NCBI RefSeq assembly: GCF_037042905.1
Contig: NC_087251.1
Span: forward strand, 19,346,001-19,410,000
DNA: 64,000 bases
From: Lytechinus pictus
Lineage: Eukaryota
Direction: 5' to 3'
Shown: positions 1 through 56,855 of the stretch, one piece after another
How the letters are laid out: the number at the start of each line of letters is the position of its first letter
Numbering within the stretch: the stretch's first letter is position 1
The notes under the pieces: model-generated
Seen by the model: the letters and a program-made list of their open reading frames with translations, nothing else
The model's database searches: none
Told to the model about the DNA's origin: nothing
Made by a program: the position numbers and the translations under genes

Positions 1-601
1 GTCGGTGGTTGATGTTGATGTTGATGTTGATGTTGCGGTTGAAGGTGTGGTGGCGGTAGGGGTGGCGGTGGAGGGGGGACAAATGGCAGCTGAGTGTGAA
101 AGTCGGCTATGCTGACAGGAGATATATGTGGTGGTAGCTCAGTGATTCTACTCTCTGGAGGAGGCATATGAAAATCCCTCCGGTGCATGTGATTTATATG
201 GGGATAAAGCCTCTCCAACCCAGGTGAATACAGCCTATCTGGGCCCGTTGGACGAATTAAGACTGGAAACGTTGGCGTGTGACCATCTACAGGATGAGAA
301 TGTGGACTGTGGACTGGTATAGGAGCCAGTGGAGGGTGAATAATTTGTGGTAAACTGCTCTCTATTGGTTTGGGAATAAGCTGCTTGCTGGTGCTAGATG
401 TTGTGCTCTTGGGTGAGAGGGAGTCCACCTGAGAGACCGACTCCACAGACACAGACCGGGACCTTGAGAAAGGCCTCTCCTCCTTTGGAAATGTGTATAT
501 CTGCATTCCATGGTCTTCCTGTGCATGTTTCAGGAGCGTTGCAGCATTCTCAAACAAGCCCTTGCAAGACACACATATGTATTTTTCAGCTGCGTGGGGA
601 T
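1..601 (-). CDS. BCL11: BCL11-family zinc-finger transcription factor, large internal exon (5' part only; continues past window start). Encodes first C2H2 finger plus Ser/Pro/His-rich region
   Basis: Minus-strand acceptor tttatttctctttgcag|AT at 602/601. Hand translation in phase 1 has no stop down to base 1: (D)PHAAEKYICVSCKGLFENAATLLKHAQEDHGMQIYTFPKEERPFSRSRSVSVES...PPPPPPLPPPHLQPQHQHQHQHQPP. C-X2-C-X12-H-X4-H followed by G-x-x-IY resembles BCL11A ZF1 ([29 protein letters not shown], from memory). Absent from the ORF track because the frame is open at the window edge. Confidence 0.93.
8..35 (-). repeat. (CAACAT)n coding hexamer repeat encoding QH dipeptides
   Basis: gttgat x4.5 on the + strand, inside the BCL11 exon. 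Confidence 0.9.
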
Positions 602-11589: not shown

Positions 11590-11783
11590 TCACACATGGC
11601 AACAACTACCACCACACCTGGCAACAACTACCACCACACCTGGCAATAGCTACCACCACACATGGCAACAACTACCACCACAACCAGCAACAACTACCGC
11701 CAAATCCGGCAACAACTACCACCAAATCCGGCAACAACTACCACCACACCCGGCAACAACTACCACCAATCCCGGCAACAACT
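11590..11783. repeat. 22-bp minisatellite, ~9 copies (GGCAACAACTACCACCACACCT)
   Basis: Unit starts at 11598, 11620, 11642, 11664, 11686, 11708, 11730, 11752, 11774. Confidence 0.95.
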
Positions 11784-26100: not shown

Positions 26101-28379
26101 GGTCAACAGCATTAAAATGGGATGTGAAGTCGGAATCAACTGTGATGTCTTCAATTTTCAAAACCTAAATCTCCCGATCAAAAATATATAAATGGATTTA
26201 CAGAGCTTTTTGAAAAGCAGATGAGCCTAGGAGATTATACAAGTGTCAGAACTCAGGAAAAATATTGTCAACATCGTGCCCTGTTTGTCTGTATCACTAT
26301 TCCTCAGTGAGACCAATTATCAGATATCGGTCTTGGGATAAATGAACAGAATTACATCTTGTGTCCTAATTTGAGTTCATTTAATATTTCTTATTAGGAT
26401 TAGGAAAAGAGAATTATACAGGGTCATTTCCACTAAGTTATGTACAATATCAAGGCTTCTATTTATAATTTAAAGCAATTTAGGTTAAATATTTACCCGA
26501 TTCTCTCCCTCCTTTCATTTCCATAGATAACTTCTTAACATCCATTTCTTTCCATGGACGCTTTTTTATCTGGTCTCTCAATCTAGTTGAGCCCCTACCC
26601 CTTATCTCATTCTCTCTCTTCTTTACTCTGCTTCCCAAGCCTTTCCTTTAAAAAAGACATTCACAAGTAAACCCTACATTCTTTTCATAAAAACACAAAG
26701 ATTACTTATATGTAAAACTGGAATATACAAAAACATTTTGAGATAAATAAAACAGAGTCTTGCCTTCCATTAAAATAATTGTACATGAAAACTATAGATA
26801 TCTCTCACCAATTAAAAAAAAAACTTTCCTTGTTTTTATAGCACTGACACGACTATAGAGAAGATAACATAGCATTAGCAAAGATATTTTTCAGGTAAAC
26901 TATTTTGAATTAATAAGGAAGTTGCCATTATCTTTCTCGGTCACACACTGACCTAGATGGTCACTATCATCTTCTATCAATAAGCCTAATTCAATTTTCT
27001 TATCCTCCTGATTTATGAATTTTATATCAGCAGTAACTGACTGACAATAATCTCACTGACCGATTCAGTCAGATGAATTATATATTGACGACTCCCACGC
27101 TCGGCTAGAAGACGATTACTTTTACCAATACTGCCATCTCAATTTCCGCTCTTTTTTCTGAAATGGGAAGTTTGTTTTGGTCATTTTTTGCAAAGTCACA
27201 GCTAATCATCTCTTTTTCTTCTCTTTTTTTCCTAGTTGCTTGGCAAAGAAAATGAGACATTAAGTGGTTTAATGCTATGGAATCAAACTTGAATATATTA
27301 CTTTTGCTTCATGTGCAGCATCGATTTCTAATAAAACAAAGAAAAGAAAAAAAAAATGTTTGAATAAGCCCCTTGGAATGGGTACATTTCAAATCTATAG
27401 AAACAGGATGAAAAACAATAAGAGCAGCAGTAAATCTTGAAAGTCAGAGGACTGAATTGAATGCATTTATCATCAGAAGTTTTACAAATGAAATTTTCAA
27501 TCACTTCTGCAATTAGAATTCTAAGAATTTCACTTTCCTGAATGGAAATACAGATGGTTGAATTAGGATACAACTCTATATATTCCCTTAGGATGAATGA
27601 ACAACAGAAAGCATGGACAAATACCTGTTATTCCTTTCAATAATGAAGATGGGTAAACAATTGTGCTAAAAATTCATGCTATGGGGCAAAAAAGAGAAAG
27701 GATCGAGAACAGAAATAAGTTTTTCTTTAGCAAGGGTTACTAGTTTATGAGGTTGAGAAGAGCCACAAGCACTAAACTCATTAGAATGACTTTGTGATAC
27801 ATGAAAAACCATGCACGAGTTGTAGTCTAAGTCCCTTCAAGTGTAGTCTGACCTATATCATTCAAATCGTCACCCGTAATTACATTAATTCCCCACGACT
27901 CTGTCACTGCAAATCTAAACTTCCCCCGGGCATTGGTAAAATTATGATATCATACCGTATGATTTGTGCAAACTGACAAACCTGAGCAGAATGATTACCG
28001 TTGATATGGTTGGATTGCAGTAGGGGGCAACATTTGGATACAAGTTGACGAACACATGGAGGGCTGCGGTCTTGACAGGGTCGAGTGTCAGGTAGCTCGG
28101 ATGGCGTAGGCATTGAAGAGCTTATCTCTGCCCTGCCAGAATGTCCCTGTTTGGCCCTCTCCATGCGGTTCTATGGCCAGGTCTTCAGATTTCTCCATCC
28201 ATATCGAGGGTAAAGATGTGGGGCTGTAGCCTCCGGGCAAGCCGCCAGCCATCGATGCAGGTGATAATACCCCTGCTGAAGCCACCAGTTTAAAGATGCA
28301 GACAAAATGTAATAATGGTTCATTTGATGGCTAGAAATGATGGGGGAGTGAAGGGGGTGGGGGAAGGAAAGAGTTGATG

Positions 28380-29480
28380 AGATGTCTGGTGATGGGGGGG
28401 GGTGTCGGCTAATGGAGTGGGGCAGGCAGTGTCCGCCCCGTAGTTATCGGCTTGTGACAACCGATATGGCCGATACTCTTAACCAGCATCTTGTCCCTTC
28501 ATCCCCATCTGCATGGCCTATTTCCTCTGGCTAAATTGGTCAGGGTAACTCAACCGGCCGCTGCACTCTCCATCTTTCCTTACATCACACACTTAGCCCC
28601 TCAGAACATTCTATACAACATGATCGGTAGAACTGATTGCATCACACCGAGTGTGTGTGTATTTGGTTAACAAGTCTGTCGACAAAGTAAATGTGGGCCA
28701 ACCCGGTGCGGAGCAAGCAAGGTATGGCTAGATGGGGATCTCGGGTCACATGTGACTACTTGGCCTAGATCCATCGGCTAATTTGGCCAGGCTATCCCAA
28801 CATGCAAAGCTCAGACAAATGTATTGCTCTTCCTAGCAAAATATAATCTAACAAACTCATCAGCAATGATGAAAAGCAAGATAAGGAGAATATCGACCAG
28901 AGAAGAGAAAAAATCATAATGGTAGTTCCGTCTAATCGATTGAGATCCAGTAACCTTTGTCCTGGGCATGCAATATCAATACCACCATCAGCAAATTGAA
29001 CGGTGTGTTCAGCTTGAGATTATTTCCTCCACCGGGGATATTTATGGGAGCAAATATGTCCCCCTTTGCATCCTTTTTTCCTCTCCAATGCACATGAGGG
29101 TTGGATGCTGATGGTAAATAAGACATATTCCCATTGTATGAATGGGTCTTTTAGTATTCACGCATGCTGCATGGCCTAATTCTCTAGGCCGATTTGTTGC
29201 AATTCATTGGCCGGCTTCCTCCGGCCATTTTACCTAAGCTTTATATGGGCTAATGTACTTTGCCCAGACATGTATACAAATAGCATCATTTTTTATGACA
29301 TACATGACATTTAATCCAGGTCAGCTATGGCTATGAGCGGCCAGTCTTTCCCTGACATCTAACCATCTGCTTGATCTAGTTTCACAGGCTAAAGCGCATC
29401 CCCAAGACCTACTCACCTCTCTCTTGACACACTCACTGCTCTTGGCTCTAATCACAAAAATGTCTTGGCGGCCGATGGAC
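28380..29480. promoter_or_regulatory. Candidate intronic cis-regulatory module with a homotypic GGCY / TGGCC-N10-GGCY cluster
   Basis: Unique GC/CpG-enriched island with four identically spaced TGGCC-N10-GGCY sites (28514, 28761, 29172, 29208), about 20 GGCY half-sites and a perfect palindrome GTCACATGTGAC (28745-28756). Confidence 0.5.
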
Positions 29481-32400
29481 TCCTTCTCCCACCAGCCTCC
29501 ATGCGCTAGATCTGACAACAACTCGCATCCAAAGCCACTTCATGAGATGTCAATTGCCTGTGATTCTTTCAAATTTAACCAATCATGCCTCGCAATTCAG
29601 CGCCGACATCGGACCCGAGGCATTCCAATACACAAGTGACGAGGGGCACGATGAATGAAGATGATTGGCAGTTAATTGTCATAAAACTCCCTCTGTATTG
29701 TGGACTATCCTTGTCACCTTCCTCTCATATAAAGATAGGTACCAAATGATTCAGCTCAAACTCTGCCTATGGCCCACTTACTCAAGTTTGCGTAAATGAT
29801 AAATATTAACTGACACAAATGTATAGACACTTGTATCATTTACAATTTACTCTGTGGTTTAAAAAAATATAAACTGGTAACATTTTTTGTATCAGCATCG
29901 TTATGGTACTGAGCATTTGCAGTCAGTAATTTGTATCAGTTTTTTTCAGTACCATGTAACGCAAATTAGGTTATTGAGAAGGTGAAAAATAAGAAGATAA
30001 CATACATAAGAGTAAGAGTTTCATCATCTATGAGAAGGCTTAGGGTCTGTCATTTAATGTGAGAAAAGCTCAAATCATGCCATATTTTATGGAAAAAGGT
30101 CACTACAATGAGTCATTCATAATAATTTAGGGACAGTGACAAGATGAGAAGGAAAAGTAACAAGAGTAATTGGGGTCTGAACACTTTATGAAAACACTCT
30201 TAAAAGTATACATCTCAGAGCCCTACGGCGAACATTTATTTAACCCCGATCCCAAATTGTAAATTGAAGAATGATGTGATAAATCACTGCATATTTTATT
30301 CAGTAGAATGTGGGCTAAGTATGTCAACTGCTTAGTTTTATATGTCCCAGGGTTAATATTTTGAAACTGAATACCGTAATTACGAACACATACATCAACA
30401 GTAAGCATGGCAGGGCATAAGCCAGCCCCTCATTTGCATGTTTCCCTTCTCAAAGTAAAAGCGACCATCTTATTGAAAATGATGTCCTTTAGGCTTGACG
30501 CAACAATGACTGATAAATCTGGAGCATATTGACAACGATTTTTTTTTTAATGGGTGGAAGACAATTGTAAAAGTCTTGACATATAAAAAATAAGCACTTT
30601 GATCCAGACAGCAGCTTAGGGTAATCCTATAAACTATAGTGCCTACCTGAAATGAGACAAATTAAAAAAGAAAAGAACATATACTCTTTCAAAGTCTTAA
30701 AAGGCAACCTGTTATACCATGTTGTTAACACATTCATTCATATTATTTGGGGTAGGCTGATTTATTTGTTATGCTGAATAAAATTATTTCATCACATTGT
30801 AATGTTTTCATGTTTTCTCTATCACCCCATGTCCATGAACTGTACAAATGTTACTAAAAAGAGAAAATAAAATGGGCAACATACATGAATATGTCTTACA
30901 CAGATAAATTTAAACTTAAATGTAAGAAGGTGAAATATGATTTTTTTTTATAAAGTTATTCAAAGCCCCAAAAGTTTATTGAAGAACAAAATCCCAGTGT
31001 GATCCATCCAACAGTAATTACAATTTGACAAAGGCTACTTTACCATAAATACCATTTAACTCAGTATTAGGTCCCATCATCACACACGTACAAAAGCTGA
31101 TTACCAGATTTATTCAATTACAATTAGAAAAGCAGAATTCACTAAATATTTTTATATATTAGATGATCTTAATATTCATCATCTTCAACTTCGACCTTAC
31201 AAGAATTTTTCTCCAGAAAACAAGAAGCTATTCCACACATTAATGGCAAATCTGTTGTCTTTTTAATGTTTTTTTTTTCATTTGCTTTTCCCTCATGTTT
31301 GATGACAATATGTTCTCTTTGTATCTCATTAGTTAAAATATGGGTGACCAACTTTTAAGATTACAGTTTTACTGCTTTATCACACAGTCAAACTGATATT
31401 TTAGAGGAAAAAAATCTGTATTGAGTTTTGTTTGTGACTTTTCGACATTCTGTATCCTTACATGTTTTTCATACTTTTTGCCAATCCCTTTATTTTTTTT
31501 ATTTTTTTATTTTTTTTGGAGGGGAGGGGGGGGGGGATATCAGCGGAATGTGCTTACCATCCAAAGCAAGAGCTTTATATAGGGCAGGTGTTCCTGCGGA
31601 AATGTGAAGGAGCTGAAGCTTAGCGTTATACATTCAGAGATATACCCTTTGGTCACTTGCTTTCTTCTCAGGACAAAGCAAGATGACTTCAGGGATACTC
31701 CACTTAAATTAGTAAGGTATTGCTGAATGGTAACGATAAAGGCAACTACACAAAGATTGAATTAAAAGTAACTGGTTCCTAAAATCCTAAAGGAAAGAAG
31801 CGAAAGTCATCTGAAAATAAACATGTTGAGTACTTCAAGGATCGCACTTAGTCCTCTCGGAGAGACCACAGCAACAAACAGATGAGCTTTTTATGATGGC
31901 AAAGGCTTGACTTGGATTACTGGATTGAGGCTAGTATACACTCAGACTGGAATATCAAATATACAAGGGGGTTCCGACTATCATCGCACCACCTCAGGAG
32001 GGTATTCTCCTTGACGTTGTGAGATCATAAAATGACCAGCTTTATCCAAAGCCGCTACATCCCTTTGAATCTTCATGTTTAGAATCTACTTTGGCCCGGT
32101 ATGGTTGGAAGTCCTGCCTCGCATACTGCACTGGAGATTAGTATGATTATGATATCATTTCATCTGTCAGCCTCCGCGCTCCATTCAATTGCTCCATCTC
32201 TTTCTGACTTTGGTAAAGGATTCTAGCTTAATTTCTGAAACCTACTTCTCTTCCTATCATCAATTTGGTTATTTCTCATAAGCTCAAATTACTGATTGAA
32301 ATATGTAGAAGCTAACTTCATTCCTTTATTCATCTTCATGCCATAATTTCATACCTTCTCTCATCTTTGCCTTCTCTCTTGCTTCCCTGGAGCTATCATA

Positions 32401-35400: not shown

Positions 35401-36233
35401 AATGTCAACTCTTCGTTTCGTTTCAAGAAGCCCATCTTCATAATATCTCAATGAAAAGAAAAGAAATATAAAGTAAAGAAAGCAAAGAATTAAATTCATA
35501 TTGTTCATCATTAGCATGTGATTAACACCAAGATGCGATCAAGGTGAAATCCTTAATGATATTTAGTATGGCCTGATAATGAGAGTTAATGAGCCAGGTT
35601 ACCAATGAAGGCATATTTATAGACAATGGGTTTTTAAATATTCCAAGATGGTTATAGGTCCAATCAGTAATGCAAAAAACCATTATCACAGTAAGTAATT
35701 AATGAAAGAACAAGTTGAACCTTGAAGTGTTATACTACCAGGAACCTTGAAAGCTTCTGTTCAGTTTTAAGAGCGTCATTCAGTATTAACCATCAGCATG
35801 CCAGAGAAATTACAGCTCAACAGAATTTACATATATTATGTGGTATGGATAAGCGATTATGGCATGTTAAGGGTTGACGCACAACTAATTTAAGTTACAT
35901 TTTTGTGACATTCTTTAGGTCCTTACTCATGATTTGGGGAGTTCTCTAACTGAAAACACAACTGAGTCCATGATTCACATTTAGTTATTATTGGGAACAT
36001 GACATAGGCATATTTGTAATTCAAATCAATTGATGGAGATCTCAATAATATTTTCCATAATGCCTCTTGGTGGTAAAGTTTCCATTAAAGAAACTGGAAT
36101 TATGGTGATCTATATTCATGAGGTCAAACGATACTAAAAACCCTGCAATGGTGAGGATCATTGTTGATTGGATAAAATACATGAATACTCTTGAGCATAA
36201 AATTGCATCATGTTGTATACCATTTCTTTACTA

Positions 36234-36867
36234 ACAGGTGGAGCACCTTTGGCAGTCTCACCTGCATTACACTATTCAATATATCAGCAGTGCTGACTTT
36301 GAAAACTACTGTAAAATAATTATTCATAAAAAACTCCATTTAAATAATGGTTAAAACTATGTTCATAGACCCTAAATGACATTTGACCTTGATCATATGA
36401 GATAAGACTAGTATCCGCAAACTTTCAAAGTTATGATGGCAATTCAACAATTACCCCCAACATAGCCAAAGTTCATTTACCTTAAATGACCTTTGACTTT
36501 AAAACATGTGACCTGAAACTCTGCATGGGATGTTCAGTGATATTTGATTACTCTTATATCCAAGTTTTATGAACTAGATCCATAAACATTCAGATTTATG
36601 ATGGTAATTCAACTAATACCCCCAACATGGTCCAAGTTCATTGACCCTAAATGTACTTTGACCTTGGTCATGTGACCTGAAACTCAGGCAGGATATCAAA
36701 AATAATTGATCAATCTTATGTCCAAGTTTCATGAACTAGGTTTGTATACTTTCTAAGTTATGAGGTTATTTCGAAAACTTATCCTTCGGTTAAGATTTAA
36801 TGTTGATGCTGCCATCGGAAAAGCAGCGCCTATATAGTCCTGCTCTGCTATGTAGACGAGACAAAAA
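36234..36867 (-). mobile_element. Helentron-associated non-autonomous element (HINE/DINE-1-like), older degraded copy
   Basis: Colinear with 56055-56855: GTCTCACCTGCA near the left end, TGACCTTTGACCT-type tandem units, TCGGAAAAGCAGCGCCTATA...CTCTGCTATG...GAGACAAAAA at the right end. Confidence 0.8.
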
Positions 36868-47015: not shown

Positions 47016-47471
47016 ACCGTTTGTAAAACAGCATCACAGGTCATTCCAATAAGGCATACAATATTGGGAGATTAAGTAAAGCATTCTTTCTAGAATTTAA
47101 GTAATTGTTGAAGGAACGTCGTGACCAACTTGATCTATATAGGCCTATAAAGTTTTTGTACTTCTTTTCCATCGTTAGTATACCTTTACAAGAATCAAAT
47201 AAGGATCGCAAAACTACACAATCCTAAGGGGTTTACCCTACCTACCGTTTGTAAAACAGCATCACAGGTCATTCCAATAAGGCATACAATATTGGGAGAT
47301 TAAGTAAAGCATTCTTTCTAGAATTTAAGTAATTGTTGAAGGAACGTCGTGACCAACTTGATCTATATAGGCCTATATAGTTTTTGTACTTCTTTTCCAT
47401 CGTTAGTATACCTTTACAAGAATCAAATAAGGATCGCAAAACTACACAATCCTAAGGGGTTTACCCTACCT
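47016..47471. repeat. Near-perfect 228-bp tandem duplication
   Basis: Copy 1 47016-47243, copy 2 47244-47471. One difference seen by eye (ggcctataAag vs ggcctataTag). Confidence 0.95.
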
Positions 47472-48513
47472 AAACTCACCCTTTCCGTCTCTTACAAACA
47501 AACATTCTATGTTATATCTGCCTATAAACTCTGGTAGATGACAATGTTGGTAAAATCACTCTACGAATAGGTGTAATTATTGTTAATCACTTCATGGTCA
47601 ATAGTGGTGTGAAGGACGTTATATGTTGTTTATCTGTGCATGTGTACTTTGGTGTGATAATGACGATATGGACTGTCCTTAAATTGCCACCTGGCTGGAC
47701 ATCTGCCCAGATTCCATGGTCAAAGGTTTACAGTGCACAGCACCGGCTAGTTCTTGTTATATTGTTAAGTTGTCACATCCACTTTGTGAATAAAGATGCT
47801 TGTCTTTATCGGTCAGTCAAACTATAAGGGCAACTTATCAATATAGGTATGAAATGTGTATACAGGCAGAAAGGGAAATGTAGAATATAACATACATTTC
47901 AAAATTGATATGAGCTTTGTAGGTATACCTTATGTATACCTTCCTCATAAAAAAATACAGCAAACTTTTCATAAATCTGGGTTTTATAATGGTGTGATAA
48001 AATTTGCATGCTTTTAAAACCAAATTACTTTGTGAAAACCTACAGAGAAAGTTATGAGCTACCTTGACCCATTGAATACTCAATTGCTACATGCTGTATA
48101 CAACTATTTTGGCTCCTGTACATAATAGGTTATAGGAGTATTGACTGACTAGTAAGTAGCAAGAGTTTGGATGACTTAAAGCTCAAGTCATGGTCTCAAT
48201 AAGCAGTTTGTCTTTTCCACATTCATTGGCACAGTATGCCACCAATCAGGCCATGAATTAAAACAAGTTTCTTTTAAACTTTGTTTCACATTTAATTTAA
48301 ATATTCACTGGAATCTGACATCACTCTTTAAAGTTTATGATTCTACTATAAGGCATTTTGTTACCACTCACAATCATTATGGTGTTGTGTGGACATCTGT
48401 CCACTTGTGCATAAATAGGGGTTTAACCTGAATTTTCTCTGTGCATAAAAATGTAATAGGGACCAGTGGAAATGAATGATCCCTAACAAACACTATAACC
48501 CATCTTTCATTAC

Positions 48514-49850: not shown

Positions 49851-50276
49851 CTAGTATAGATTCTGTTTGTGTCTCCTTAGCCCGTGGAGAGGGGGCATCT
49901 CTGCTCTGACTCAGTGACGATGTTCTCTTGATGATAATCTTTGGTTTCTCAGCTCTCAGGATTTTCTCCAACGGACTCATCGTCGTCGTCGTTGGGTTGG
50001 TCGTCATGGCCACCATGACACCCTCGCTCTTCTCTTCCTCCTTCTCCTCCGCATCGTCTGTTTCCAGGGGTTGGCTGTCATCCTCCGGTTTGTTCGGTTC
50101 TGTTTTGGTCACCACCTCTTTCTCCTTCTTCCAGCACTTCCTTTTGTGTGTTATGAATTTGACAATGTCTGAAAGCATGAAGGTGGTTTCACAGTCCCCA
50201 CACTGCAGCAGGTCACAGTGGGGAGGGGGTTCATCTCCTTCCATCAATTCTTCACCATCTTCCCCGGCAGCTGGAA
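49851..50276 (-). CDS. BCL11: BCL11-family exon encoding the N-terminal CCHC zinc finger (ZF0) and acidic/Ser-rich linker
   Basis: Within ORF 49816-50337: DLLQCGDCETTFMLSDIVKFITHKRKC resembles BCL11A [28 protein letters not shown] (from memory). Acceptor ttttccacttttcag|TT at 50277/50276 and donor CTAG|GTGAGA at 49851/49850. 426 bp, phase 1 at both ends. Confidence 0.95.
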
Positions 50277-51239: not shown

Positions 51240-54200
51240 GGTATTGCAAAACATACTGAACATTTGGCAAACTTGTATCCTTGAACAGACAAGGGAAACT
51301 AAAGAGAAACTCTCTGATAAATGCTTGCCGGGGTGGTAAGGAAAATAATAAGAGCTAAGAATATGGGAGGTGAAGAAAGTTAGAAGAAATAAGTGTATTC
51401 AAAAGAGGAAATGGCAGCCAAAAGTATTCCACATTAATGAAATGAGAGATAGAATAAGAGAACAGAGTTTGACTGATGGCTTAATCAAACATATAAGATA
51501 AGAAAATGATACTAGTAACCTTGCCATCATGACATTGAAAGAAAATACATTTATGGAGTATTTCTTATGATTATAATGTTGTATCTGATGTGCTGGTGGG
51601 TTACACTGTTCAACTGCAAAGTCAATCAAGGTGCATCATGGGTAATATTCTGAGAGACTAAGTGTATGTCTGGAATACAGATTATTTTGTGGCAGAGATT
51701 ATCATCATAACATCATTTAGATGCTAGATAATGATAACATGCACTTTCATTTCTGTTTATTTGTATGCATTCTTTTATATCCAACTTAATAAATTTACTT
51801 GGAAAATGATATGGAACAGCATTAATACAAATTGTTGCAATCTTCAGAGACATGTCTGAATGAATAATCTTTTGGATTTGTTGCTTAGACCTTTAAGAAA
51901 CTTCTAATCATGTTCTTTTTTAATCAATGAACATATTTTTCTACTTAAGTATTATAATACAGATATTGGCACAAGTTTTTATTCATTCTTTTCCTGGTAA
52001 GGGACAAAACAACATTGTTGAATGGACAAGAACAGAATTGTTTAAAGCCGCAACAATAAACAGACATAGAAATCAAACAATAACCGAACAGCCACCTTTA
52101 CTAAACAAAAGATTTCCTCATTATGATGATGTGTCTACATTGTTGGCACACCTACTGGTCATGCTTTGGGTAATATAAATAAAAGAGATGCCAAAGGTCA
52201 CAGCCCACCTATGGAAGCTTTTCTGTACATGGTTTTTCATTTTATTCCCTATCCTTGGGGGAATTCAGGCATGCTTTGTTTCCATGTCGCAACCTTGGAC
52301 TTGACCAAGTATACCCAACCCCTTAAATGGGTTTTGTTGTCTGCTACCCGAACTGATTTCCAAATCATTGTATATATTCGTTATACTGTATCCCATGCAT
52401 ATGCCCCATCTTGCAAGCAATAATACAAGGGTTTGGCCAGCCATTATTACCATCCCCTCGGCCCAAATGAAGGACCAGGCGAATTGGATGTTGTGGGAGA
52501 TGAAGCTGGCAGATTTGTGATAATGGGCTTTTGTTACTCTATCGACCCTTTCATTCCGTCCTGGCTTATGTCAACCTTTCATCAGTAATGCTTTGGCCTG
52601 TGGGAGTTTTATGTCAAGAAAATGTACCCCAAATTATTATTTTTTTCCTGTCCACCTCTCTCCCTCTCTCCTTCTCTCTTTCTTCTCATCTGGTGACTGG
52701 AATAACATCCTGTAGTTGTGGAAGCATTACAGAGCGGTGGTACTCAAAAGACAGGGAGACAGATTAGCAAGATTCCAATCTGTTCTCCATTATACCATCA
52801 CAAAATGTGGCCAGGAGCTGGGGAACAGGCTAAAATAAAGAAGAACTGGTGAAAGAAAGACAACACAAATAGGGATCCGAGATGTTCAACAGTCAGAAAG
52901 CAGACTGTAGGCCGACCAAAACCAGAAAGAAAGAAATTGGTATTTTTTTAAGGCCAGCAAAGTTTTGATTATAAAACAAAGAACTTGAAAATCATTAAGA
53001 GAGGAAATAGACCGTTTGAAACCAGTGAACTAGATAAATATTCCTCTTGAAACATGAGAAATATGAACAAAGAAATGAAATGACAAAAAAAAGAAGAAAA
53101 AAACAGGGATGGTAGATGCTCTTCACAATGATAATAACTCAAGAAAAAATAAACCCATTTTTAATAAAGAAGTAAAGAGAAGGCTGGTTACCAAAGGTGA
53201 GAATACTATTTTCAATGTTCTATTTACCCTTTGGCAAGGATTAAAATAAATTTTCTTCTTCTGCAGACATCTCCACCTTAATAAACTCTCACAGACAACA
53301 TATTGCCTCAACATATAAATCAGTGACAACATTCTCCTGAAAGTATGATTTGTAGGTCAAGATAAACGGCCTGTGGGAGTCGTCCAGTTCTAGGGTAAGA
53401 GATAGGACACATGGGTTGTACGTGATTGGTCGAGAGGGTCACGCATTGCCTGATGGGAAGATCGAAGGTCAAGGGTGAATACTGATCTATTGGCCTAAGT
53501 TGCACAGCCATGGCTACGTTTGCAAGTCTTGGGACATTGAGAGATACAATGCACGCCTGACAGTGCAGTATGTGCCACTTGTTTGTGATATATTATAAAG
53601 CGTCCTAAGCGCCTCATACCCCCCTACTCCATATACACATACTCATAAAAAGGGTGGGGCAATAACAAGGGCTTCTATATTGGAGGGACAAAGCAAATCA
53701 TTACTGAATACAATCAGGTGAATGCAGAAATACAATCAAAGTTAGCCAGTGACTGCACAAAACTATCGAATTCTCTCCTTTTGCTATGACTTAAGAGTGC
53801 CCACTGAATCTGAATAGCTGTCTGGAGAGTGCTCTTTCTGCCATGTCCACTGTGCACACAATTCAACTGCAAAAGCAAGGTTATAAATATTAGACCTGTG
53901 CTGGTAATTGATAGCGGTGTTCTGTTGACACACTGGCCAGACTTTGTATTGACAATGTGTCTGCATACAGATCGATTGTACTTAATGATGAACTTGCTGC
54001 AATATATGTGGCCTCTAATGAGGGTTAGGTTTTAATTGGAAGGACTTTGGCCTTCAAATTAAATCATTCCCAGACACCTTTAATGAATTGGGTCAGTTCA
54101 AGACTATGATATACTACTATTGGGCAAATAATGATAAACATCCCCTCAATTTATGGCATTAAGAGATAAGAGCCACCATTTTGAAGTAACTCATGTGTGT

Positions 54201-56054
54201 AGATACAGATTCTGTATCTGGGTGTATCAGAATTCTGCATTTCCTTTTTAGTCAAAATGGGGGGTTTCAACAGTCTTTCTATTGTAAAAACAAAACCCTG
54301 GATATAGCTCCTTTATGAATTCAAATACAATAGCTCCAATCCTACAATTTTGAATATCGCTAAATGTTATCTTGCTACCTATCAAAATCAAAATCACCAC
54401 AAAAGTCTGTTCATGATTCTATCTGGGAAAGACAAAAATAATGACAAATGTAAACAATGAAATTATAATACCCTCTATATCATAGATTTATAGAAAAGAA
54501 ATAGAATCATATACTTCTTTTGCATTTCTGAATATTTGTTCATACCACACAAATATAAACAGGTGAGGATAAAAATTATCCCATATACAAGGTTAATATT
54601 CCCTTTCTTAATAAAGAATTTGACATTATTTTACCTCACAACATTTGTTTCCTTTTTACTTAATATTTGGTATACTTTCTAGGGTACAGGTGGATGTAGT
54701 CTGCCTCCCTTTATATCTTGTCAGAGATACAGCAGAAAAACTTCCATTATTATCATCACTAAGAATTACCATCATTGCATACCTGATACACCAATGTACC
54801 GGCCTAGACATCTAGTATATTTGATTCATTAATATTATCATTACTCTGCTGAAATCAATTCAATTAATTATGTTGCACACTAAATGCTCAAAAGGAAGAG
54901 ATAACTATTTCATGATTTAAGAGTTGTTAAATTTGATAACTCCCCCCACCCCCTTTACCACCCGAATTCACAAAGGGAGGGGGTTAAAAACCATGATGGC
55001 AAATCGTGTTTCTTAAGATACTGCAGCATGTAAATTGTGAAAGGCCCAATAATAACTGCATGTTTTTGGCAAAGCTGTAGTCCTCCCACATCCCTGCTTT
55101 TGTAACCCCCCCCCCCCCCCCAGTTTAAACCCTAGTCTTTCATGAATTTGGGCCTAATAGAGCTATTAAAAAGTTAGTAGATAAATGTACATCTTTACAA
55201 TTCAGAAGTGTAGAGATACAAAGAAAAAATAAGATTTTTTTTGTAAATATTGATTTATAGCAAATTGAGGGCATTCACTAAATATTAGTTAATTCTATCA
55301 ATTTATTTATTCATGGCTTACTTCTTTGTATAACAATAGGTGTATTGATATTATACTACCCATATCATGATTTCATATGAATGTTTGCTGATTCCTGTTT
55401 TTCAAATTGCTTTTCTGCTTATGACCTGAATTCCTATTCAATGCCACATACAGGCATTAGGGAAAACACATTTCAGAGGAACCAGCATGTATCACATTTG
55501 ATTTGCATGGAATTAAAATCAATATTGTTCTTTTACTTCCTATAGCAGATGTATCCATGACTTCAGGACAAAAAAATGAACATTTATTAATTTCATAGTA
55601 TTACCCCCCAAAAGGAGTATATAGTATGCAGCATGAGAGAAAGGAATATATAGTAATTGTATAACCGGACAAGTAAACTCATGCTGGTAATCTCTTGTAA
55701 TTTAATAACATCCTGAATGATCATTTCTTTTCACATTTGTAAAATACCAAGAAAACAAAGCAGTAATATGCAGCGGACATTAAACATCACTGTTTCATGA
55801 TTATTTTTTTTCAACTATTTTGCTGGTATGTTTTGTTTTTTGTTTTTTCAAATTCATTTACCTTTAACCTACATGTAAATGTAAACATGTATGGAACTTC
55901 TCTGAAGGCACTTTAAAAGTCTGAAACGCATCCTTTGTGCAAGCGTCTTTTCATTGCCTATCTTTGCATTAAATCATAGACAATTCATTGGTGAATGCAA
56001 TAAAAACCACTGTGAAGGACGCATAGTACCTTTATATTGAGATTTCTGATATAA

Positions 56055-56855
56055 ACAAGTGGAATGCCTCTGGCCGTCTCACCTGCATCACGCGATTCAA
56101 TATAGCAGCAGTGCTGATTTTGATAACTACTATAACTCGCACAAGATGTTCAGTGATACTTGGTTACTCGTATTTCCACGTTTTATGAACTAGACCAATA
56201 CACTTATAGAGATATGATGGCAATTCAACAAATACCCCCGACGTGGCCAAAGTTCTTTGACCTTACATGACCTTTGACCTTGATCATGTGACCTGAAACT
56301 TGCACAGGATGTTCAGTAATACTTGATTACTATTATGTCCAAGTTTCATGAATCAGATCCATAAACTTTCAAAGTTATGATGGTAATTCAACAGATACCC
56401 CCAATTCGGCCAAAGTTCATTGACCCTAAATGACCTTTGATCTTGGTCATGTGACGTGAAACTCATGCAGGATGTTCAGTGATACTTGATTAACCTTATG
56501 TATAAGTTTCATGAACTAGGTCCATATATTTTCTAAGTTATGATGACATTTCAAAAACTTAACCTTAGGTTAAGATTTTGATGTTGATTCCCCCAACATG
56601 GTCTAAGTTCATTGACGCTAAATGACCTTTGACCTTGGTCATGTGACATGAAACTCAGGCAGGATGTTCAGTAATACTTGATTAACCTTATGGCCAAGTT
56701 TCATAAACTAGGTCCATATACTTTCTAAGTTATGCTGTCATTTCAAAAACTTAACCTCAGGTTAAGATTTGGTGTTGACGCCGCCGCCGCCGTCGCCGCC
56801 GCCGTCGGAAAAGCGGCGCCTATAGTCTCACTCTGCTATGCAGGTGAGACAAAAA
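56055..56855 (-). mobile_element. Helentron-associated non-autonomous element (HINE/DINE-1-like), well-preserved copy
   Basis: Read on minus: TTTTT, subTIR GTCTCACCTGCA (56839-56850), partial inverted copy forming a 5' hairpin (56825-56831), (CGG)n microsatellite (~56779-56806), tandem units of 163-192 bp, then 3' subTIR TGCAGGTGAGAC (56076-56087), short stem and TTT. No TSD. This matches the described HINE/DINE-1 layout. Confidence 0.85.

Follow-up and report, generated by a model that had tools for sequence, protein, structure and literature searches.

The Bcl11 locus and its 49-kb intron

The 64-kb stretch of DNA analysed here, called the window below, contains a portion of a Bcl11 gene, which runs on the minus strand. 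The exon for the CCHC (ZF0) oligomerisation finger was located at 49851..50276 (minus strand). It matched PF25491 (E 2e-11) and the BCL11A ZF0 structures 9b4p and 9bv0, and its translation was 73% identical to protein P0001 of Diadema setosum. At 1..601, also on the minus strand, lies the start of the next Bcl11 exon (ZF1), which continues past the window edge and showed 70% identity to P0001 (173 aa). On the strength of these identities the animal was taken to be a sea urchin. The two exons border an intron of 49,249 bp (602-49850). Because they join gaplessly when compared with P0001, this intron holds no constitutive coding exon. The cluster of TGGCC-N10-GGCY sites that is the subject of this analysis sits in the middle of the intron, after the CCHC exon.

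Several repeats were also observed in the window. Nested long inverted repeats of a MITE-like kind (168 nt at 94% and 163 nt at 83%) were found at 1165-1979, towards the 3' end of the intron. A dispersed repeat with internal units of 163 bp and 192 bp occurred twice, at 36233-36813 and 56054-56778. A near-perfect 228-bp tandem duplication was present at 47016-47472, and at 11591-11783 a minisatellite with about nine 22-bp units.

Occurrence of the four sites

A first-pass annotation of this DNA had described a TGGCC-N10-GGCY motif repeated four times at a fixed spacing. It was found that the sites at 28514, 28761, 29172 and 29208 were all of the plus-strand matches at spacer 10 in the 64 kb. 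Each of the other spacers from 0 to 25 gave at most two TGGCC-Nx-GGCY matches in the window, and the single minus-strand match at N10 was the palindromic site 4. The proposed excess of N10 over other spacers was therefore seen locally, within the 64-kb window.

At least three matches at any spacer from 0 to 25 were obtained in none of 2000 dinucleotide shuffles of 28380-29480 and in none of 2000 trinucleotide shuffles of the same interval. Random placement of the real word counts gave four matches in 39 of 200,000 cases. Because the motif had been picked by eye, the chance test was widened to any 8-base gapped word, and four copies of such a word appeared in 4/400 and 3/400 shuffles. Counting against the observation, an 8-base gapped word was also present four times in 22 of 79 real 800-bp tiles; among the examples listed, these tiles consisted of AT-rich, simple or tandem DNA throughout. 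The stronger test was that of the columns beyond the eight defining bases, since these took no part in defining the motif. The annotation had described a loose consensus shared by spacers and flanks, and indeed these columns agreed more than expected by chance (p=0.002 for the spacer, and p=2e-5 for the spacer plus six right-hand columns). When each site was held out in turn, the four sites ranked 4th, 4th, 4th and 5th of 127,948 positions. These results demonstrated that the four-site repeat is real and beyond chance, with a motif that is defined by four copies only.

Other parts of the earlier description fared less evenly. The proposed fifth site at 53491 carries AGCC instead of GGCY at N10 and ranked 118th of 127,948 positions, and it was dropped for these reasons. 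The abundance of GGCY half-sites in 28380-29480 was reproduced as a count (23 on the plus strand), but outside the modules defined below it was not significant (20 versus 16.1 expected, p=0.21). The DNA between the sites was in general unrelated, as had been claimed, except that sites 1 and 2 could be aligned over 46 bp (34/46). That the sites do not form a tandem repeat was confirmed by Tandem Repeats Finder, which reported 14 rows in the window and none at 28-30 kb.

Anatomy of the sites and modules

The cores read TGGCC-N10-GGCT at 28514..28532 (site 1) and 28761..28779 (site 2), and TGGCC-N10-GGCC at 29172..29190 (site 3) and 29208..29226 (site 4, a perfect inverted repeat), all on the plus strand. 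The whole site is ~24-26 bp long and asymmetric, with a sequence of roughly TGGCC-TANWTCCNYY-GGCY-RWWTT, and all four copies have the same orientation. The copies differ from one another at 16-24 of 33 positions.

Sites 1 and 2 belong to 46-bp modules at 28509..28554 (module 1) and 28756..28801 (module 2), both on the plus strand. The two modules were the best 40-mer pair (30/40) within the conserved block described below, and one of 100 shuffles reached 30; past the module the likeness of sites 1 and 2 was at background level. Each module carries a third half-site at offset +23, which is TGGTCA in module 1 (28537-28542, plus strand; TGACCA on the minus strand) and TGGCCA in module 2 (28784-28789, plus strand). 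This agreed with the earlier observation that site 1 adjoins TGACCA(AT) on the minus strand and site 2 adjoins TGGCCA. Site 4 reads GGCCGGAGG on the minus strand, as had also been noticed, and this is the sole exact match in the window. On its plus strand site 4 contains TNCGGCCA, one of three in the window.

A borderline candidate for a degenerate extra copy, TGATC-N10-GGCT, was found at 29372..29390 (plus strand). It ranked 8 of about 128,000 positions, with a right-half score of 11.1 versus a null 90th percentile of 11.0, and its likeness to site 1 (26/40) was inside the null range. No helical phasing was seen between the sites, whose distances are 23.5, 39.1 and 3.4 turns. At 29319-29343 the GG-anchored half-sites GGTCA, GGCTA and GGCCA follow one another at intervals of exactly 10 bp, or roughly one helical turn.

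The three-half-site pattern was also matched at five metagenome loci, which fall into two families. None of them aligns to the block, and they were treated as chance for this reason. Loci L001 and L003 lie in what the translations, judged by eye, suggest is a bacterial operon of dioxygenase-like type. At L004 (2980-3080; also L002 and L005), the match lies between divergent ORFs in an AT-rich element that has CCAAT-like words and flanking inverted sequence, and one of the ORFs encodes a long repeat-rich protein.

A conserved non-coding block around the sites

Part of 28300-29600 was covered by 20 listed runs, which carry the labels of six organisms (A-F) and of one metagenome. Four of these runs, one each from relatives C, D, E and F, were aligned to 28380-30180 at 80% likeness. 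In all four relatives a single colinear path was found, which started at ~28407-28430 and ended at 29682, and no contig fitted two places. A conserved block at 28407..29682 (no strand assigned) was defined on this basis. Its left edge is provisional, as the alignment started at 28380 and loose contig ends resemble the window just left of a G-run. The GC-rich island goes on leftward over 27700-28400, and together with these window-like contig ends this suggests that the conserved block may extend further left.

The contrast between block and flank was steep. Relative C showed 24 changes in 1276 bp of the block versus 28 in the next 173 bp (1.9% versus 16%; Fisher p=6e-14), so that the divergence of the block was ~8.6-fold below that of the flank. 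Relatives D, E and F had 66-72 changes in the block (about 5-6%), and their flank from 29683 could not be aligned until about 29991-30046. The lack of conservation that would have spoken against a functional cluster was thus not seen: the block aligned in 4/4 relatives with a divergence far below that of the flank. A second short block at 30046-30132 was also aligned in all four relatives and is possibly a companion element. At eight positions in 28407-29682, D has the letter of the window where relatives C, E and F have another one in common. Since D is about three times as divergent as C, these shared letters suggest unequal lineage rates.

The block is non-coding: in relative C the frame is broken by indels of 1, 2 and 8 bases, and the longest stop-free frame has 100 codons. 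The single contig path per relative, obtained from filtered contigs, suggests one copy. The block was absent from the 20 of 50 direct-repeat families and 25 of 76 inverted pairs listed, and no terminal repeats of a transposon or MITE were found for it among these.

Within the block the sites themselves were examined. Sites 1 and 4 lie in runs of 134 bp and 118 bp, respectively, that are unchanged in relative C, and the core of site 2 is also unchanged there. Relative C showed no changes or indels in 36 core bases, although the absence of substitutions has a probability of 0.5 at the rate of the block. Across the relatives, 40 of 154 substitution entries and 12 of 54 indel entries were listed, and for C the list was complete over the block according to the tallies. 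Among those listed, two changes fell in the modules, 28787 C>T and 29185 T>C, both common to 4/4 relatives and both in columns already variable between the copies. With the former, the third half-site of site 2 becomes TGGTCA in each of the relatives (TGACCA when read on the minus strand) and so matches the third half-site of site 1. The latter, the one spacer change listed for site 3, is a pyrimidine swap. No deletions were seen in the bins of the sites in any of the four relatives, judged from depth bins whose dips match the listed deletions. Insertions were excluded by letter counts to the contig ends at site 1 in C, E and F, at site 2 in C, D and E, and at sites 3-4 in C only. Indels elsewhere in the block were many (54 entries over the aligned stretch). 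These data establish constraint for the block as a whole.

A putative homotypic cluster in a candidate cis-regulatory element

The first-pass annotation had read the repeat as a homotypic cluster, and this was strengthened by the location of the sites in a non-coding block that is strongly conserved and colinear along a single path. The block is most likely an enhancer or silencer of Bcl11. The reading that we prefer, and hold with about even confidence, is that the block would be a conserved intronic cis-regulatory element of Bcl11 with a homotypic cluster of sites, read by a single sequence-specific protein or by a rigid complex. Conservation was observed directly, and regulatory activity is inferred.

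A protein with several C2H2 fingers might be the reader, for example, or an obligate dimer. Contacts of this reader with the two GGC(C/T) triplets and with part of the spacer would account for the TCC column and the 14-bp offset seen from copy to copy. If several copies were occupied cooperatively, the element would be opened or repressed and Bcl11 output set in this way, by analogy with the ZNF410 clusters of CHD4. Local duplication of one module is the probable origin of the copies, which would have been fixed afterwards, as suggested by their common orientation and by the 46-bp likeness. Consensus sequences of NFI, AP-2 and ROR with their proper spacers gave no match in the block. The left halves of three sites look like the ROR extension, except that GGTCA is replaced by GGCCA.

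Bcl11 as a possible reader

It had been proposed that Bcl11 regulates itself through these sites. According to this explanation, oligomeric Bcl11 would be the main reader in its own intron, probably for self-repression, and would bind left halves of the form TGnCCn, third half-sites of the form TGACCA and right halves resembling GGCCGGAGG. We consider it unlikely, although it was weakly favoured by several observations. The recognition helices of ZF4-5 in Diadema Bcl11 are identical to those of human BCL11A. P0001 matched the BCL11A ZF4-6 structures with an E value of 5e-47; this is the protein of a relative, as the DNA-binding fingers encoded by the window's own gene lie beyond the window. 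The motifs published for BCL11 are TG(n)CC(n), TGACCA, TNCGGCCA and GGCCGGAG(G/C) (PMC12006351, PMC13752505, PMC8079813), and BCL11 binds clustered motifs (PMC12006351, PMC13752505). TGnCCn fits all four left halves and both third half-sites. TGACCA is the third half-site in site 1 and, in 4/4 relatives, at site 2, where the change in the window falls at the free position of TGRCCA. The occurrence of the sole exact GGCCGGAGG of the window in site 4 had a p value of 0.008-0.04, uncorrected. GGNNA comprises the three base-specific BCL11 contacts named in PMC12006351. It was enriched in the block (60 versus 41.8, p=0.001), also outside the modules (44 versus 34.8, p=0.044).

The earlier suggestion was thus weakly supported by the contact residues, the TGnCCn left halves and GGCCGGAGG in site 4, but not by the frequency of TGNCCA or by the spacing. 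TGNCCA was not enriched in the block (5 versus 4.4 expected). TGnCCn was more frequent than expected in the block (21 versus 12.4, p about 0.01), but its enrichment did not hold outside the modules (13 versus 10.6, p=0.26). GGCCGGAGG with at most two mismatches was not enriched (6 versus 3.5 expected, p=0.11, with trinucleotide shuffles; p=0.15 with tetranucleotide shuffles), and 297 of 1024 GGCC-led 9-mers scored as well as it did. Right halves depart from TGnCC in three of the four sites. As for spacing, PMC13752505 describes BCL11 arrays with variable spacing and no fixed arrangement, and a preference for 1-bp-spaced pairs in the same orientation. No such TGnCCY pair was found in the block, and the two in the window lie in a repeat, at 56268 and 56623. 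It is concluded that Bcl11 may bind some of the half-sites, whereas it is unlikely to set the site geometry.

A stricter form of autoregulation was also considered, in which the module is a fixed-geometry landing pad for a Bcl11 oligomer in its own intron and part of a conserved negative feedback loop. A single Bcl11 dimer or tetramer would use its ZF2-3 and ZF4-6 arrays to bind three or four GG-anchored half-sites at once, at offsets 0, +14, +23 and about +29. This form is distinctly improbable in our view. If it were true, the module would provide a defined DNA substrate for the full-length Bcl11 oligomer, whose arrays are now thought to be free-spaced, and it would suggest that human BCL11A and BCL11B are autoregulated through the corresponding intron as well. 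Should Bcl11 be the reader in any form, the cluster would show how an oligomer uses several half-sites of low information.

Other explanations of the cluster

The main competitor to a single reader outside Bcl11 is a duplicated composite module. Here the copies would be the product of old local copying, each copy would be bound by several factors with short motifs, and the 10-bp spacer would be inherited rather than required. The single orientation of all copies and the alignment of sites 1 and 2 over 46 bp agree with this, and it counts against the one-reader reading that four same-orientation copies and a shared 46-bp unit fit a duplication history equally well. Sub-words also recur alone and in both orientations (RGCCGAT 5 versus 0.26 and RRCCRAT 9 versus 1.6, words chosen post hoc), GGCTA occurred 6 times outside the modules versus 1.6, and site 4 alone fits the consensus words of YY1 and the CCAAT box. 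What speaks against the composite module is that the half-site spacing has been kept without gain or loss of a base, in the window and in the relatives where this could be tested, despite differences at 16-24 of 33 positions, and that the likeness drops to background level past the module. This explanation was likewise assigned a low probability.

An RNA-level element was judged very doubtful. In that case the sites would be hairpins or sites for RNA-binding proteins in the Bcl11 pre-mRNA, which would control splicing or a cryptic exon. The same orientation of all four copies is compatible with this, and sites 3 and 4 form hairpins with a 6-nt loop on the sense strand (z=-2.15), in which the 29185 change would turn an A-U pair of the site 3 hairpin into G-U. 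But sites 1 and 2 had no hairpin (z=+0.71 and -0.54), so that only two of four sites fold; moreover, trivial folding is to be expected of any palindromic DNA site, and folding was better on the antisense strand (z=-3.42). No Rfam match reached the gathering score. A pyrimidine-rich acceptor-like site with an in-frame stop directly after it, at 28331 on the minus strand, would suit a cryptic exon, but YAG/GTRAG recursive-splice sites were absent from the block (28407-29682), and the intron outside repeats contained one (21229, 5/20 pyrimidines). Use of the 28331 acceptor would place a stop three codons into a cassette exon, for which a weak donor-like site is present at 27998.

An internal or antisense promoter is highly improbable. 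The block would then be an island richer in GC and CpG, with the repeats as promoter-proximal sites. Indeed, it has a GC content of 0.458 and a CpG o/e of 0.55 versus 0.36 for the window, the highest GC peak of the window is at 27701-29100, a GC box is present at 28438, and two full CCAAT-box consensus words were found (2 versus 0.31, p=0.04). CCAAT itself, on the other hand, was not enriched (6 versus 5.0), and the one run recorded as RNA shared only 0.07 of the words. Three other runs, whose RNA origin is a guess, bridge 371 unlike letters and were for these reasons not taken as signs of transcription.

An origin by chance in GC-rich DNA, or from inside a multi-copy transposon, is scarcely credible and was largely refuted: the four-copy words in 22/79 real tiles speak for chance, the shuffles, the held-out ranks and the column agreement speak against it, and the multi-copy transposon interior, named earlier as a possible pitfall, disagrees with the one colinear orthologous path per relative into unique flanks and with a divergence far below that of the flank.

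Comparison with known systems

The homotypic cluster in a conserved Bcl11 element, which we prefer, has several counterparts in the literature. In being a long non-coding block with conservation far above its flank at a developmental transcription-factor gene, it resembles the echinoderm cis-regulatory elements reported in PMC13317027. Conservation within Odontophora holds for about 40% of the purple-urchin elements and conservation across Echinoidea for 5% (PMC13317027), figures which imply that such blocks are common. Bcl11 appears in the orthology table only among the five text supplements of that report, and its main supplementary workbook may list the element. Vertebrate BCL11A is likewise surrounded by clusters of CNEs (PMC1896008), and the block is like these in being conserved non-coding DNA at a developmental transcription-factor gene. 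The difference is the long motif repeated inside the block, for which no description was found for echinoderm or BCL11A elements in the portions of these sources at hand. In the literature covered, which included few subscription papers, there was no account of the element, of the motif geometry, or of Bcl11 autoregulation from its intron.

Compared with the clusters bound by BCL11A and BCL11B (globin locus, SHANK3, Sema3c; PMC12006351, PMC13752505, PMC8079813), the block is similar in having TGnCCn, TGACCA, GGCCGGAGG and TNCGGCCA in its modules. It differs in that its offsets are fixed (+14 and +23) and spacer bases are shared, whereas the published clusters are free-spaced or favour 1-bp-spaced pairs in the same orientation.

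Most conserved non-coding elements give no hint of their reader, whereas this block has a long word repeated with fixed geometry. That word makes it a ready bait, with a 46-bp probe and spacer mutants, in an animal, the sea urchin, where embryo reporter assays are routine. Through the block, a factor that acts upstream of Bcl11 in animals outside the vertebrates could be identified, or an uncatalogued motif.

The closest parallel is offered by the enhancer clusters of ZNF410 at CHD4, which also contain several copies of one long motif in a conserved element by a regulatory gene. We take the motif of the block to be different from that of ZNF410. For ZNF410/CHD4, 27 motifs are known, and the factor, its binding, cooperativity and activity were demonstrated; motif number and spacing are kept among related species, as reported in a preprint (bioRxiv 10.1101/2024.02.24.581901). 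The Bcl11 block, unlike these clusters, has four copies of a bipartite or tripartite motif known from sequence alone. By analogy, we infer that it would work like the ZNF410/CHD4 cluster. Viewed against these systems, the block is real and belongs to an ordinary class of element, although its motif is unusual.
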